UHGV virus genome: UHGV-0300571
DNA: 13,936 nucleotides
Strand: one strand, 5' to 3'
Source of the DNA: a virus
In this document: in pieces, positions 7,904 through 13,936 of the stretch
How positions within the stretch are numbered: position 1 is the first letter of the stretch
How the letters are laid out: every line of letters begins with the position of its first letter
Notes under the pieces: model-generated
What the model saw: only the letters and a program-made list of their open reading frames with translations
What the model was told of the DNA's origin: nothing
Database searches by the model: none
Program-made: the position numbers and the translations under genes

Positions 7904-8151
7904 GCTGTCACCTCTCCGGTTTTAACGTTGATGGTTGTCACCTGTTCCGCTTCGGCAATCTCCCGTTCTGTCAGCGTGGCAAAGTTTGCCGCCGTCGTGG
8001 CCATGAATGCGCTTATCAGTTCGGGATGTGCTTTCGCGTATCCTTCCCCGGCGTGGCGGTCTATCGTTCTGATTGCCACCTTTAAGGCATGCTCTGTCAT
8101 GTCTAATGCGCGATATTTTGGCGCTGTTTTATCTCTGGTTTTTCTGTTCAT
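7900..8151 (-). CDS. Hypothetical protein (84 aa)
   Basis: ATG at 8149-8151 (MNRKTRDK...). Its RBS lies inside the first iteron. Translationally coupled to ssb. No motif I recognise. Confidence 0.45.
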   Translation of the reverse strand: MNRKTRDKTAPKYRALDMTEHALKVAIRTIDRHAGEGYAKAHPELISAFMATTAANFATLTEREIAEAEQVTTINVKTGEVTA

Positions 8152-8349
8152 TCCCCACCACTCCCCACTTTTGTTCCCCACTTTTTAAAATTCCCCACTT
8201 GCTCCCCACCTCGTTTTTTTGTGATTCTAACGTGATGTTTTTCAATGTGTTTTTTACTCCCCACTTTTTTGGGTATATACAGGTGGGAAAGTGGGGAGTA
8301 ACGTTGATTTTTTGTTAAATTCCCCACTCTCCCCACTTTTGTTCCCCAC
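8152..8349. repeat. Replication origin: TCCCCAC iteron clusters flanking an AT-rich segment
   Basis: Direct copies of TCCCCAC (often TCCCCACTTTT) at 8152, 8162, 8175, 8192, 8203, 8258, 8321, 8330 and 8343. An inverted copy GTGGGGAG is at 8291-8298. An AT-rich stretch at 8211-8256 sits between the clusters. The region is immediately 3' of the replication-initiator gene. Confidence 0.7.
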
Positions 8350-8352
8350 TTT

Positions 8353-9768
8353 TTACATCGGGTGAACAGCATCGCCGTCAATAGCGATTACGTCGTCACT
8401 TTCCAGCTTGCGTAACCAGCGACTAAAGTGCTTCATCTCATACCCCAGCTTTTTCATATCATCGCGCAACAACGGAATTGTGCATTTATCGCCGCGCTGT
8501 GTGCGTGAACGGATACAGCCCCATAGTGCGGCATGATTTTCCGTCTTGTTCCCGGCTTCCTCGATGCGTTCCAGTTCAACGGGTGGGCGCGGCTTATCCA
8601 CAACCACCAGTGACGTGATTAACTCCCCGTCAGTGTCGGTAAAAAGCTCCACCACGCGTAAATCATATGCAGCCTCTTTCAGTTCCTCCGCGTCCTTCAT
8701 TTTGGTGCAGGAGATAACCAGGGCTTCACTGTCTGCACCTTCACGGCGAATACGGTATTCAGCGTCCAGAGATGCACGAAATGCACTGGAACCACGCGCC
8801 CCCTTTGTTTCATCCTTGCCGGAATGGTGAACCACCAGTACCGTGGCCCCTGTGCGTCGTTTCAGTTCGTCACATCCACGGATAAACGCCCCCATATCCC
8901 GCGCGTCATTTTCATCATTACCGCCAAAGCAACGCGCCAGCGTATCCAGAATAATCATGCGTACCGGTTTACCCGTTTCCCGTTCAACCTGGCGGGAAGC
9001 GATGACCATTTCATCAACATCAAGCGGGGCTGCCGGAAAAATCGGGCGGTTTACCAGGTACAGATTTTTCACCCGTTCATCATTAACGATTTCCCATGCC
9101 TTGATACGGCGGGGGACACCAATGCCACCTTCACCGACAACATACATCACCGAACCATGCGCAACCCTGCGGCCTCCCCAGTGGCGCCCCGTGGCAACAT
9201 GACACGCCCAGGAACACGCGAGGAATGATTTATAGGAACCGCTCGCGCCGTATGTGCTGCACAACGAATTAGCCGGAATCACGCCCTTAACGACATAATC
9301 AAGCTGTGTGTCGTACCCTGTAGATCCAATACTCATTGGTAGCGTGGTTTTTCGCTGGCTGTATTGCTCGTCAGTAAGTATTTCCCCGCGCTCTGCCTGT
9401 TCGCGGATCCGTTGCAGGTAGTCGTGCCAGTTCTCCAGCTTCTGGCTGTGCATTCCCTCAGGGTAATAATTCGCATCCCGTACACCTGCCGCCGCCAGCT
9501 TTTGCCCGATGGCATTAATATTTGACGGCTTGATGTGGCCTGCCTTGTATAGCCGGACACAATAGCGACCATCGTCGATGATTTTCAGGTCTGCCAGTTC
9601 GTCAAGCTGGCTGTCTCCAAGCCATACAGGTGGCACGTTGTCGCCAGCAAGTCGTCCGTCCTGTTCCTGCCACTGTTTCGCGTGCGCCCAGGCATCACTA
9701 CCCGCAAAAATAATGACTTCGGTCATTTTGTCGTGTGGCTGTTTTTTTAAGTTCGGTGCCAGTTTCAT
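8353..9768 (-). CDS. Replication initiator: N-terminal primase/origin-binding-like region fused to a RecA/DnaB-like (AAA_25-type) ATPase
   Basis: 471 aa. Walker-A-like YGASGSYKSFLA, the motif ...VLVVHHSGKDETKG... and MIILDTLARCFGG, consistent with RepA/DnaB-like helicase loaders of satellite and PICI replication modules. ATG at 9766-9768 overlaps the upstream stop. The iteron origin is directly downstream. Confidence 0.8.
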   Translation of the reverse strand: MKLAPNLKKQPHDKMTEVIIFAGSDAWAHAKQWQEQDGRLAGDNVPPVWLGDSQLDELADLKIIDDGRYCVRLYKAGHIKPSNINAIGQKLAAAGVRDANYYPEGMHSQKLENWHDYLQRIREQAERGEILTDEQYSQRKTTLPMSIGSTGYDTQLDYVVKGVIPANSLCSTYGASGSYKSFLACSWACHVATGRHWGGRRVAHGSVMYVVGEGGIGVPRRIKAWEIVNDERVKNLYLVNRPIFPAAPLDVDEMVIASRQVERETGKPVRMIILDTLARCFGGNDENDARDMGAFIRGCDELKRRTGATVLVVHHSGKDETKGARGSSAFRASLDAEYRIRREGADSEALVISCTKMKDAEELKEAAYDLRVVELFTDTDGELITSLVVVDKPRPPVELERIEEAGNKTENHAALWGCIRSRTQRGDKCTIPLLRDDMKKLGYEMKHFSRWLRKLESDDVIAIDGDAVHPM

Positions 9769-10505: not shown

Positions 10506-10737
10506 AACCCCCCCCATTTTCACAATCAGCAATCAGGATGGCTTTAGCCTCATTCAGTGCCATATCAGCACTAAGTTGCATTACAGCCAGTGAATGAGGA
10601 ACGAAAGCCCCGGCATATTCTGTTTCGCTGGTGGCGTGCTTATGCGCCTTGTCTGCGATAACAGAAATATCAATCAGCGCGTGCATCAGCGTTTTGATGG
10701 CTTCGGCGGCTGCGTCCGGACGGGTGTTATTGCACAT
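10498..10737 (-). CDS. Hypothetical small protein (79 aa)
   Basis: ATG at 10735-10737 overlapping the stop of the upstream gene (ATGTGCAATAA). A G8 run lies in its 3' end (plus 10508-10515). Confidence 0.45.
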   Translation of the reverse strand: MCNNTRPDAAAEAIKTLMHALIDISVIADKAHKHATSETEYAGAFVPHSLAVMQLSADMALNEAKAILIADCENGGGYA

Positions 10738-10933
10738 GGCGCACCCCCTGACGAATACGGGCGGCGAATACCATCACACAGCCAGCCGGGGATTGCTGGC
10801 GTGCTTCCTGTTCGCTGGTGGCCTCAATGGTAATCACGCGCGGCTGTGCCGTGCTCAGGGCGATAAAACGCCAGATGTATTTACTCAGGTTGTGCGAGTC
10901 CCGCCCTTGCGGGTGTGTGGTATGATTTAACAT
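10727..10933 (-). CDS. Hypothetical small protein (68 aa), first gene of the minus-strand early operon
   Basis: ATG at 10931-10933 with GAGGT 5 nt upstream. It is the only well-initiated portion of an otherwise implausible 394-aa track ORF. Confidence 0.4.
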   Translation of the reverse strand: MLNHTTHPQGRDSHNLSKYIWRFIALSTAQPRVITIEATSEQEARQQSPAGCVMVFAARIRQGVRHVQ

Positions 10934-11030
10934 AGCTACCTCGATACTTCTGCTATCGTTGGTGGTTAGAAGCCCCGTTACTGCTCCAACAGTGCGGGGT
11001 TTCGTCGTTTCTGTGCCTTGCATTAACAAG

Positions 11031-11111
11031 GTGTAAGACACAATGTAAAATACAAGTGTCTTACACGTCAAGCCTTCAAAATAATTTTTTTTCGTGTATA
11101 TTGTCTTACAC
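11031..11111. promoter_or_regulatory. Divergent promoter/operator region with three GTGT-N3-ACAC operator-like sites
   Basis: GTGTAAGACAC (11031-11041) and its exact reverse complement GTGTCTTACAC (11056-11066), plus TTGTCTTACAC (11101-11111) overlapping a putative -10 (TATATT, 11097-11102) of the plus-strand RHH-like gene. A candidate -35 TTCAAA is at 11075-11080. On the minus strand a possible TTGACG -35 lies at 11067-11072. Confidence 0.5.
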
Positions 11112-11132
11112 CAACAACATAAGGAGTTAGAC

Positions 11133-11312
11133 ATGGCAACAGGTCCAAAGAATGCAAAATCACAATCTGTAACTGCACGTATTGCCCATGAAATTATTGA
11201 AGGCATGGAAAACGTGAAAGAAGAAGGCGAAAGTACAGGGCAGTTTATAAGTGCAGCCATGCGCGGCGAGATCAAACGCCGCCAGCGCCGCAAGGCCAAA
11301 GAGCAGGAGTAA
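11133..11312 (+). CDS. Small DNA-binding protein, ribbon-helix-helix-like (candidate repressor)
   Basis: Strong RBS AAGGAG 7 nt upstream of ATG 11133. The 59-aa product has an RHH-like layout: a beta-strand segment (SQSVTARI), helix A, a G-x-S/T turn (GESTG), helix B, and a basic tail. It is divergent from the early operon and adjacent to the palindromic operators. Confidence 0.5.
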   Translation: MATGPKNAKSQSVTARIAHEIIEGMENVKEEGESTGQFISAAMRGEIKRRQRRKAKEQE

Positions 11313-11369
11313 CCATCACCAGCGCCGTGGTGCGGTGAACTGTGGCGCACAGGGTTACAGGTATCTACG

Positions 11370-11567
11370 ATGACTGACAAATCATTAAAGAAATTATCCT
11401 CATCCAGGAAAAAACAACGCAAAAACGCGGTAAGAGAACATGAACAGGAAAGATTCGCGCCATGTGCGTTTGTCCTTGAAAAGTTCCTTAAAGAGTACAG
11501 GCGCACAAAAATGGGATCGCATGCCTGGAAAACATCGCAGCATGGCGATACTAAAGAGCAGGAATAG
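11370..11567 (+). CDS. Hypothetical basic small protein (65 aa), uncertain
   Basis: ATG at 11370 with only a weak AGG upstream. Very basic product. Followed by an intrinsic terminator at 11670-11699. Confidence 0.3.
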   Translation: MTDKSLKKLSSSRKKQRKNAVREHEQERFAPCAFVLEKFLKEYRRTKMGSHAWKTSQHGDTKEQE

Positions 11568-11669
11568 CCCACCAGCAAGCCAGCGCACTGATCACATTGC
11601 CAACCGGATGTAATCACGGCATAGTAATCAGCGCTTATGCGTTGGGGATAACGTGTAGCTTGTGTTGAA

Positions 11670-11699
11670 GGGCCACCGTAGCGGGTGGCCTTTGTTTTG
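11670..11699 (+). terminator. Rho-independent terminator
   Basis: GGCCACC-GTAGCG-GGTGGCC followed by TTTGTTTTG. Confidence 0.65.
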
Positions 11700-11751
11700 C
11701 CTGTTATCCGGCAATTGTGGCGCTTCGCTACACGGTTGATATAATCCCCCT

Positions 11752-11822
11752 GCACTGATCCAATTTTTTCGCAGCAGGTTAATTGTTCAGAAAGGCGGCT
11801 CCATTTCGGGGCCGCTTTTTTT
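11752..11822 (+). ncRNA. Candidate small RNA (~70 nt), convergent with alpA
   Basis: Extended -10 TGATATAAT at 11737-11745 (with a weak -35 TTGTGG at 11715-11720), then about 45 nt, then a strong intrinsic terminator GGCGGCUCC-AUUU-CGGGGCCGC + U7 (11794-11822). No ORF with an RBS in this interval. Confidence 0.3.
11794..11822 (+). terminator. Rho-independent terminator, possibly bidirectional
   Basis: An 8-bp stem with one G-U pair plus TTTTTTT on the plus strand. On the minus strand the same hairpin is followed by CTTTC, so it could also end the alpA transcript. Confidence 0.7.
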
Positions 11823-11963
11823 ATGCCTGAAAAACCACAATTTTGTTGTTTTCCAGTCTCACCAGGACGAGCGAAGCCCCGCCCCTGTTCGGGCGTATAT
11901 CCAGTCTTCATGGTTAGATCTCTGTATTAGTGGATGGGTGGCGGCTGTGTGCCGCCAGCCTGA

Positions 11964-12522: not shown

Positions 12523-13752
12523 TTATATTTCTCTGGCTATTGGCAGTGTGGTTACGTTTTCGTGAGTACCTGCCAGTATCTCTAACCGCTCTGTCCACAT
12601 GTCCAGCGCATTACGTTTCGCATCGAGATAACGGGAGTGGTTATAGACTCGCTGCATCCCTGGCATCTGGTGAGCGGTGAGTTGTTCGACAATATGCGGA
12701 TCCACGCCTAAATCGTTCAGCATTGTGGTAAACGTGCGCCGTATATCGTGCAGGGACCAGTGAGGATGGTTTAATTTTTTGTGCGTAAATCTGCCGTATT
12801 GTGACACGCTGGCTTCCTGTTTCAGTTCCCCGAGTAATAACCCTGTGTGCCTGTTCTGCTCCACCAGCTGCGTGACGAACGGCAAAATGCTTTCCGGTAT
12901 TGGCCTGAATATGGCGACCTTCGTTTTGCTGTGTTCTTTCGGTACCGTCCAGAGCATTTCCTTAAAATCCCACTCCCTGATCTCCGACAGCCTCAGTTCT
13001 CCGGTTCGGCAGCCAAACACAATCAGGAGGCGGATTAGTGCGCTGTAGTAGGGCGGGAATATTTTTTTATCCAGCGCCTGTAATAATTCGCTCAGTTCTT
13101 TGTTGCTCAGCACGCGTTCGCTTATGCCCGGCTTTTTGCCAACGTCCACCACGTTGAGATCATCCAGAACGTTACTGACTGCGTAGCGACGTTTACGGCA
13201 GAACTTAAGCGCCTGTTTACACGCCTGCATCATGTGACCAGACGTTACGGGGGATTTTTTGCGTATCCGGTCAAAACAGGCCAGCCAGTGACGCAACTCG
13301 CATTTATCCAGTGGCATATTGCCAATATGCTGTATGACGTGATTATTCAGGCGGCTTTTCAGGGAGACGTAATCGACACGGTTTTCCTTTACGTGCATTT
13401 CCAGCCAGTAGCTGATCGCATCACCCACCGTTACCGGCTTTAGTGCTTCCTGTATGGAGTAATTAAGCTCATGGCGTGGATTTTTTCCCTCTGCCAGCCA
13501 TGCGCGACACTGTGCTGCTTTTTCTCTGGCTGCTTTCAGGCTCAGATCAGGATAATTTCCCAGCTTCAGGCGTTCCGGTGATACCTGGCGTCCTGTTCCT
13601 GCCCTGTAGGTGAAATACCAGGTTAACAGGCCGCTGGTGGAGTGTCTGATACTCAGGTTTCCACCGTCATTAAGAAATGTGGTTTTTGGGGCTGGTGTGC
13701 CGTTGATTTTTCTTAGCTGTGTATCGCTCAGTTTGTTAAGTGCTCTGCTCAT
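12523..13752 (-). CDS. int: Tyrosine site-specific integrase (P4-like family)
   Basis: Arm-binding-like N-terminal domain (...LSDTQLRKINGTPAPKTTFLNDGGNLSIRHSTSGLLTWYFTYR...) and a C-terminal catalytic region with ...HDIRRTF...HQMPGMQRVYNHSRY... (catalytic Tyr context). Start is uncertain: ATG at 13750-13752 is preferred, with in-frame ATG at 13770 and GTG at 13773 as alternatives. Confidence 0.9.
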   Translation of the reverse strand: MSRALNKLSDTQLRKINGTPAPKTTFLNDGGNLSIRHSTSGLLTWYFTYRAGTGRQVSPERLKLGNYPDLSLKAAREKAAQCRAWLAEGKNPRHELNYSIQEALKPVTVGDAISYWLEMHVKENRVDYVSLKSRLNNHVIQHIGNMPLDKCELRHWLACFDRIRKKSPVTSGHMMQACKQALKFCRKRRYAVSNVLDDLNVVDVGKKPGISERVLSNKELSELLQALDKKIFPPYYSALIRLLIVFGCRTGELRLSEIREWDFKEMLWTVPKEHSKTKVAIFRPIPESILPFVTQLVEQNRHTGLLLGELKQEASVSQYGRFTHKKLNHPHWSLHDIRRTFTTMLNDLGVDPHIVEQLTAHQMPGMQRVYNHSRYLDAKRNALDMWTERLEILAGTHENVTTLPIAREI

Positions 13753-13775
13753 AATTTTGAATCCGGTCATCACAA

Positions 13776-13842
13776 TTAACTACACCATTAACTACACCGA
13801 TCATTGCACAAGGGGGTACAACGTGGAACAAGTTGGAACAAG
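13776..13842. promoter_or_regulatory. int upstream region: tandem TTAACTACACC (x2) and tandem GGAACAAG (x2, 10-bp phase)
   Basis: TTAACTACACC at 13776-13786 and 13788-13798. GGAACAAG at 13825-13832 and 13835-13842, which reads CTTGTTCC on the minus strand and so matches the TTGTTC motif at 6807-6832 and 12442-12467. Confidence 0.45.
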
Positions 13843-13936
13843 AAAAATTGCAATGAGCTTAAAAATCAAAAACATAATGAACAACGTGGCACATTATGAA
13901 ACAGCAAAAAACACTAATTTATAAAAATCCGCTATT

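Follow-up and report, generated by a model that had tools for sequence, protein, structure and literature searches.

A repeat array directly 3' of rep as the probable replication origin of a capsid-forming PICI, and its co-variation with the Rep winged helix

According to Fillol-Salom et al. 2018 (PMC6092414), Gram-positive PICIs have their origin directly 3' of rep and Gram-negative PICIs are organised alike, the origins of the latter having two iteron sets around an AT-rich region. The same authors describe plasmid maintenance driven by the rep-ori segment of EcCICFT073, for which rep and ori were both needed, and report autonomous Rep-dependent replication of rep-ori for EcCICFT073, SaPIs and EfCIV583. 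In SaPIs, Rep is a helicase that loads itself, and its C-terminal winged helix reads iterons of 5-6 nt placed right after rep (Qiao et al. 2022, PMC9371898). The layout in which rep is followed by ori is already published for PICIs and SaPIs, and the type of origin described here is in itself ordinary.

Among the described islands, the Gram-negative PICI EcCI042 resembles the locus studied here in having its ori directly 3' of rep, in its iteron sets around an AT-rich stretch, in sharing the same ori architecture and in its island context (int, alpA, DUF4222, rep, small gene, ssb, perC). Since its Rep ('Pri-Rep' allele CBG34588) is 87% identical to the Rep described here and the layout is published, the kind of origin is already known. 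The two islands differ in their iterons, AAAGTGAGG in EcCI042 as against AAAGTGGGGA here, and at Rep residue 447, which is Asn in the former and His in the latter. EcCICFT073, the only allele tested experimentally, differs in its helicase module, which is unrelated and of SF3 type, and in its iterons, TCTACC; an N-terminal domain of 130 aa is all that it shares. The SaPI modules (Ubeda et al.; Qiao et al. 2022, PMC9371898) are alike in their C-terminal winged helix, in having 6-12 iterons (5-7 nt) directly after rep, in their AT-rich centre and in having no loader. Their Reps, however, are of the AAA+ SF3 or MCM-like SF6 kind (Rep1, PriRep5, Rep2), whereas the core here is RecA-fold and SF4-like, which would imply a translocation polarity opposite to that of the SaPI proteins; the other two E. 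coli PICI alleles are likewise of AAA+ SF3 or SF6 type, unlike the RSF1010 RepA-like core seen here. Moreover, SaPI iterons on the two sides oppose each other, whereas here both flanking arrays share one orientation and the inverted copies, one exact and one degenerate, are confined to the centre.

Outside the PICIs and SaPIs, phage P4, with its alpha protein and its ori and crr sites, is also mentioned in PMC6092414 and offers a parallel as a satellite replicon in which one multidomain protein combines a helicase with C-terminal origin binding at short direct and inverted octamers. P4 alpha comprises a primase and an SF3 helicase, the P4 repeats are TGTTCACC, and two separated sites (ori and crr) are needed; alpha has no sequence similarity to the present Rep beyond a general domain logic. 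In RSF1010 a separate protein, RepC, binds iterons of ~20 bp and loads RepA, and a dedicated primase, RepB, acts at ssi sites, whereas at our locus a single protein holds both the helicase and the DNA-binding domain, and the iterons measure 7-10 bp. An IncQ (RSF1010) replicon was rejected as an identity for the locus, just the helicase core being related and no RepC or RepB homologues being found among the island ORFs scanned. A classical iteron plasmid (Rep_3/pi/TrfA) was also discarded: the iterons are 7-10 bp long against 17-22, Rep is a helicase fusion against a WH-WH Rep, no DnaA box (up to two mismatches) was found in 8101-8400 and the origin DNA is absent from genuine plasmids.

Island context and the Rep protein

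Capsid-forming PICIs (cf-PICIs) are 10-18 kb long and carry an integrase, an alpA-type regulator, a replication module and head and packaging genes of their own, including HNH, TerS and TerL, with no tail or lysis genes. All of these characters are found in the window, by which we mean the whole stretch of 13,936 nucleotides analysed, tail and lysis genes being absent throughout it, and the gene order matches that of Sp7/EcCIEDL933. As judged from its genes, the window is a cf-PICI on the minus strand. The order on that strand is int, alpA, rep, repeats, ssb, perC, capsid, portal, terS, terL, with the following features outside the repeats:

13773-12523, minus strand: P4-type integrase
12152-11964, minus strand: AlpA-like regulator
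Between alpA and the DUF4222 gene, minus strand: small ORFs, one with an Icd-like end
10064-9765, minus strand: DUF4222 gene
8353..9768, minus strand: rep, predicted 471-aa initiator-helicase (Pfam AAA_25, E=6e-44; phrog_2850 over the full length)
7900..8151, minus strand: 83-aa gene (phrog_1231), downstream of the array and outside the origin proper
7478..7903, minus strand: ssb (Pfam SSB, E=2e-16)
7181-7474, minus strand: PerC-family transcriptional activator (Pfam, E=3e-35)
After perC, minus strand: HK97-type head and packaging module (major capsid, protease, portal, adaptor, HNH, TerS, TerL)

The island SSB probably assists the replication module. As for PerC, homologues carried by PICIs have been reported to switch on the LEE pathogenicity island in certain strains (PMC6092414).

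The closest complete genome is that of E. coli 2014C-3075, in which the origin is identical. There the island sits inside a prophage terminase large-subunit gene, split terL fragments being annotated on both sides of it (1-405 and 15472-16500 of locus L001). Both ends of the window are very AT-rich; comparison of the two (1-330 against 13737-13936) revealed no direct repeats of at least 10 nt and no tRNA gene, so that att sites are not evident within the window. Only the last ~90 residues of a 394-aa ORF (10727-11911, minus strand) have matches, these being to Icd-like cell-division inhibitor and 'transcriptional repressor' PHROGs. Icd-like genes in related islands are annotated at just 50-66 aa, and the ORF may be over-extended or a fusion.

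Three parts of the rep gene are referred to below:

9385-9768, minus strand: common Rep N-terminal domain (corresponding to 8242-8640 in locus L090 and 4601-5000 in locus L091)
8356..8547, minus strand: coding region of the predicted Rep C-terminal winged helix (about residues 408-471)
8428-8430, minus strand: codon of His447

The AAA_25 match spans Rep residues ~153-320. The nearest solved relative of this core is RSF1010 RepA (PDB code 1g8y), recovered with E=0.01 from a single sequence and 6e-5 from a profile, and by these comparisons the core is classed as RecA-fold, RSF1010 RepA-like and SF4-like. The Walker A sequence is unusual, reading GASGSYKS (residues 174-181; ~9226-9249, minus strand); Tyr here takes the place of the Gly that precedes Lys in the canonical P-loop. 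This deviant form is invariant across 11 homologues, and because of it the helicase activity of Rep is best regarded as presumed. No primase domain is recognisable in Rep, nor does it have Pfam matches to D5, DUF927 or MCM, unlike the Reps of EcCICFT073 and Sp7. A model of full-length Rep had a mean pLDDT of 60.6 and was poor in the helicase core, a fold search with it returning generic RecA/RadA/KaiC/T7 gp4 cores. Because of this low confidence, the C-terminal domain was remodelled alone; in the resulting model it is a winged helix with residue 447 at the start of helix 3, the recognition helix.

Over its N-terminal 130 aa, Rep shares 62% identity with the beginning of the EcCICFT073 Rep and 68% with that of the Sp7/EcCIEDL933 Rep. 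This common domain has no Pfam match and is modelled with an alpha/beta fold; residues E17 and D65 are conserved in it. Beyond it the three proteins continue with unrelated modules, AAA_25 here, D5_N + DUF5906 + Pox_D5 in EcCICFT073 and DUF927 plus a Cch-type HTH (HTH_56) in Sp7, and each Rep allele is followed by repeats of its own: GTGGGGA here, TCTACC in EcCICFT073 and TAACCCGCA in Sp7. The unit of helicase plus origin thus behaves as an exchangeable cassette. Full-length Rep is absent from 50,697 phage genome records, in which the helicase core alone finds matches.

Organisation of the repeats and its conservation among relatives

The heptamer TCCCCAC has ten exact matches in the window, nine on the plus strand and one on the minus strand, every one of them inside 8152-8349. 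For comparison, 200 dinucleotide-preserving shuffles gave an expectation of 1.75 copies (sd 1.26, maximum 5). The first-pass annotation had counted at least nine direct copies and one inverted copy, and had placed the start of the array 4 bp past the rep stop codon; both statements hold, the stop codon occupying 8353-8355 and the array opening 3 nt beyond it, i.e. at the fourth base. Read on the coding (minus) strand, the extended iteron is AAAGTGGGGA(g/a), with a length of ~10 bp. The copies and the elements that they form, taken outwards from rep, are:

8152, 8162, 8175, 8192, 8203, 8258, 8321, 8330 and 8343 (plus strand) and 8291 (minus strand): TCCCCAC copies, exact 7-mer matches
8321..8349, minus strand: rep-proximal array of three direct iterons GTGGGGA (8343-8349, 8330-8336, 8321-8327)
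8298..8320: AT-rich spacer of 23 bp, 78% AT
8254..8301: central palindrome, with perfectly complementary 14-nt arms
8291-8297, 8282-8288 and 8258-8264: parts of the central palindrome, namely the inverted iteron, a degenerate inverted half-site and a direct iteron
8273-8280: palindromic octamer GTATATAC, between the inverted and direct iterons of the central palindrome
8210..8257: AT-rich spacer of 48 bp, 71% AT, candidate unwinding region
8152..8209, minus strand: rep-distal array of five direct iterons (8203-8209, 8192-8198, 8175-8181, 8162-8168, 8152-8158)

The repeats had been described as two clusters around an AT-rich segment of 45 bp. The segment is real but measures 48 bp, and the copies are indeed clustered, though in three groups rather than two: five direct copies, the central palindromic pair and three direct copies. 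At 71% AT against 49% for the whole window, 8210-8257 belongs to the top 1.6% of 48-nt windows. In a nearest-neighbour profile this spacer lies ~1.7-2 sd below the window mean in stability, the least stable stretch being elsewhere; as the spacers are merely moderately unstable, no single unwinding element can be named. With ten exact 7-mers and one degenerate copy, the locus falls within the 6-12 short (5-7 nt) iterons of PICI/SaPI modules, and its arrays of five and three flank a core that contains both AT-rich spacers, which is the two-set arrangement of those modules.

Neither a DnaA box (up to two mismatches) nor an IHF consensus (up to one mismatch) was found in 8101-8400, and the same search found no GATC; a DnaA-dependent plasmid-type origin was rejected on these negative results. 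An Rfam scan of 7700-8700 yielded only sub-threshold chance matches to miRNA hairpins (22-23 bits against gathering scores of 60-76), attributable to the palindrome.

Conservation of this organisation was assessed in 80 loci from one-genome-per-species Enterobacterales, seven loci of homologues at 60-86% identity and EcCI042, with an additional sample of 17 viral-contig loci found through the iteron pattern. A regular expression for the central unit 'inverted - TATAYA - direct' matched after rep at 73 of the 86 related loci, which come from many genera of Enterobacterales, and in none of 5770 control windows drawn from both strands of the same loci. The conserved order, over ~200 bp, begins with 1-4 direct iterons, ~20 bp, one inverted iteron at +42 to +67, TATAYA and one direct iteron, and continues with a spacer, of 50-80 bp overall but mostly 50-60 bp and in some loci ~78 bp, after which 1-8 direct iterons, as a rule 2-5, reach ~+176 to +200. 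Spacing is conserved too, at ~16 nt from the inverted iteron to TATAYA and ~14 nt from TATAYA to the direct iteron; the TATAYA centre of the window is the octamer GTATATAC. In most loci a short motif recurs directly after rep: the top 6-mer is generally counted 4-11 times, and 2-3 times in a minority, whereas the mean for other 260-nt windows taken from these loci is ~2.8. When 12 distinct oris of the GTGGGGA type from E. coli are compared, 91% of iteron columns are invariant as compared to 67% of the other ori columns. AT-richness of the spacer is not universal among lineages.

The origin DNA is present in 372 of 5426 complete E. coli genomes (~7%), always on the chromosome, and is absent from genuine plasmids; among the matches listed (12 records) it overlaps a RepA-family helicase gene. 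A reverse search for three GTGGGGA copies in viral contigs returned 120 stretches, 17 of them beside a Rep and 101 with no Rep homologue, so the GTGGGGA motif alone does not define the element.

Additional arrays were seen in some relatives. In Xenorhabdus beddingii (L004, ~3745-3860), a complete origin of the GTGAGGA type is followed directly by a second array of GTGGGGA/ATGGGGA copies which has its own inverted copy and a TATATAT centre, giving what appear to be two tandem origins of different specificity. Three E. coli/Salmonella PICIs that have no 83-aa and ssb genes (L083, L085, L086) contain a second partial palindrome, CCTCACTTT - TATATATA - AAAGTGAG, at ~+280 to +400 past the rep stop, along with an AT-rich stretch and 1-2 more iterons. 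Pantoea dispersa S68 has two Rep-ori modules (L032, L048) with different iterons, GTGGGGA and TGGGGGC, and Xenorhabdus bakwenae has three (L010, L012, L080), all of the GTGAGGA/ATGAGGA type.

Co-variation of the iteron with Rep residue 447

For 94 loci, classed by their repeat motif, the last 85 Rep residues were aligned. The column of highest normalised mutual information with iteron class (0.94) is residue 447, the X of K-X-F-x-R-W-L. Its distribution over the classes is:

G class (GTGGGGA): His447 in 26/26; this window, other E. coli, Pantoea, Kosakonia, Trabulsiella, Kluyvera
A class (GTGAGG(A)): Asn447 in 31/31; Xenorhabdus, Rosenbergiella, many E. coli including EcCI042
C class (GTGCGG(C)): Ser447 in 8/9; Kosakonia, Enterobacter, Kluyvera, Phytobacter, Citrobacter
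GG class (GTGGGGG(A/C)): Lys447 in 26/28; Pectobacterium, Serratia, Morganella, Erwinia, some Pantoea

His447 is likewise present in all 17 Rep-adjacent loci recovered by the GTGGGGA-triplet search (49-98% overall identity). These counts overstate the independent events, the sequences being related; a clean change between His and Asn occurs in no fewer than two backbones, one of E. coli type and one of Pantoea/Xenorhabdus type, and the number of independent switches of residue 447 and iteron is small. Iteron class does not go with overall similarity, C-terminal domains being 89% identical in the closest G/A pair and down to 29% identical within a class. For example, the Rep of L087, only 62% identical to the query, has His447 and is followed by GTGGGGA iterons, and the Reps of L082 and EcCI042, 86-87% identical to the query, have Asn447 and GTGAGG iterons. 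Pairing of Asn with A, and of His or Lys with G, corresponds to the usual protein-DNA preferences.

That the iteron class tracks residue 447 argues that Rep binds the repeats and that the repeats form its origin. The first-pass annotation had expected iterons to co-vary with Rep specificity among related islands, and when the islands were compared iteron sequence did co-vary with this residue of the winged helix. These data show the Rep winged helix and the repeats evolving together; a pattern of this kind would speak to recognition of the repeats by Rep, not to initiation over regulation. We propose that the identity of residue 447 sets the iteron variant recognised, which would give replicons of different specificity in otherwise similar islands. 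We found no literature on this iteron, on the residue-447 correlation or on the conserved central palindrome, the iterons drawn in Fig. 2a of PMC6092414 lying outside the search.

Origin or other role, and a proposed mechanism

The segment 8152-8349 is very probably the Rep-dependent replication origin of this cf-PICI, an identification made from its position and from analogy with published PICI and SaPI oris. The conserved origin-like build, the co-variation, the cf-PICI context and the published layout support this reading, and with it the earlier proposal of an iteron origin directly 3' of rep in the PICI/SaPI manner.

The alternative that survives best, although we consider it unlikely, is that the repeats are Rep operators which mainly regulate transcription, through autoregulation or as a roadblock to the 83-aa gene, ssb, perC and the head genes, the origin lying elsewhere or the regulatory role being an additional one. 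The array does lie within a unidirectional operon, and a scan of 7800-8500 predicted neither a promoter nor a terminator; a promoter or terminator role for the region itself was dropped on that result. It also touches the next gene. The 83-aa gene has its start codon, ATG at 8151-8149, directly against the iteron at 8152, which had been called the first although, the genes being on the minus strand, it is the one farthest from rep, and an SD-like GGGGAG (8166-8161), plausibly the SD of that gene, lies almost wholly within the next iteron (8162). Within the GTGGGGA lineage of E. coli this junction is kept, although the proteins encoded downstream have three different N-termini. In other iteron classes, however, the next gene begins 21-340 nt past the array and has an SD of its own, so that the overlap looks like compaction in one lineage and not a conserved regulatory device. 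The suggestion that Rep represses the 83-aa gene through the overlapping RBS accordingly finds no support as a general feature, the abutting ATG being confined to the E. coli GTGGGGA lineage; it is further weakened by the fact that Rep binds DNA whereas an RBS acts in RNA, and Rep binding at the junction could at most be a transcriptional roadblock. A regulatory reading also has to contend with an array that is 3' of rep and not at the rep promoter, with a build of multiple arrays, palindrome and AT-rich DNA that matches origins, and with the functional ori found at the same position in EcCICFT073 and SaPIs.

A packaging site, whether cos/pac or a TerS-binding array for the island HNH-TerS-TerL, is very improbable. 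The island does have its own terminase, and TerS proteins often bind repeated sites, but terS is ~5.4 kb distant, the motif co-varies with Rep and not with packaging genes, and the same rep-ori is found in islands with another terminase or none of their own (EcCI042, L083 and L085, in gpE-type capsid or ProQ/PerC contexts). We give as little credence to the idea that the repeats are sites for some regulator other than Rep. AlpA-like and PerC proteins are encoded by the island and host DnaA or IHF might also be considered; yet the motif tracks a Rep residue across backbones, islands that share DUF4222, the 83-85-aa gene, ssb and perC but have another Rep allele carry completely different iterons, and the 8101-8400 search found neither DnaA box nor IHF consensus. 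Finally, that the region is chance low-complexity DNA, a small ORF (77-81 aa) or a structured RNA is scarcely credible in view of ten copies against 1.75 expected, Rfam matches below threshold and an architecture that stays conserved while the repeat sequence changes, even if ORFs at 8148-8381 (minus strand) and 8073-8318 (plus strand) are listed mechanically and the palindrome gives weak hairpin matches.

Taking 8152-8349 as the origin, a course of initiation may be outlined. After induction and excision, expression of the island operon would yield the 471-aa Rep, whose C-terminal winged helix would bind the ~10-bp iterons AAAGTGGGGA, as the co-variation suggests. The flanking direct arrays, of three and five sites, would concentrate Rep protomers, and the central inverted/direct pair, ~3 helical turns apart, would place Rep on either side of GTATATAC. 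By analogy with SaPI Reps, the DNA could then open at the centre or in the neighbouring AT-rich spacers, and the RecA-fold helicase domain of Rep could form a ring on it unaided by any loader protein. Replication would be finished by the host replisome together with the island SSB; host DnaG probably primes, because Rep has no recognisable primase domain.

A more specific scheme combines a self-loading RecA-fold (SF4-like) helicase-initiator, a code of one residue to one base (His-G, Asn-A, Ser-C, Lys-GG) and two rings placed head-to-head at the GTATATAC pair. We offer this combination tentatively, as possible though somewhat short of probable. If it is true, a self-loading initiator of SF4-like type would be a class not described among SaPI/PICI Reps, and one substitution together with iteron drift would create orthogonal satellite replicons. 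It predicts that a Rep with Asn in place of His447 should act on GTGAGG origins instead of GTGGGGA ones.

By analogy with the published oris, the array would mark the site at which replication begins in a very common family of phage satellites of E. coli, and islands of this family carry virulence regulators such as PerC. The comparison of alleles indicates that E. coli PICIs swap three unrelated helicase-origin cassettes behind a common N-terminal domain, and residue 447 would offer a simple handle on the replicon specificity and the compatibility of co-resident satellites.
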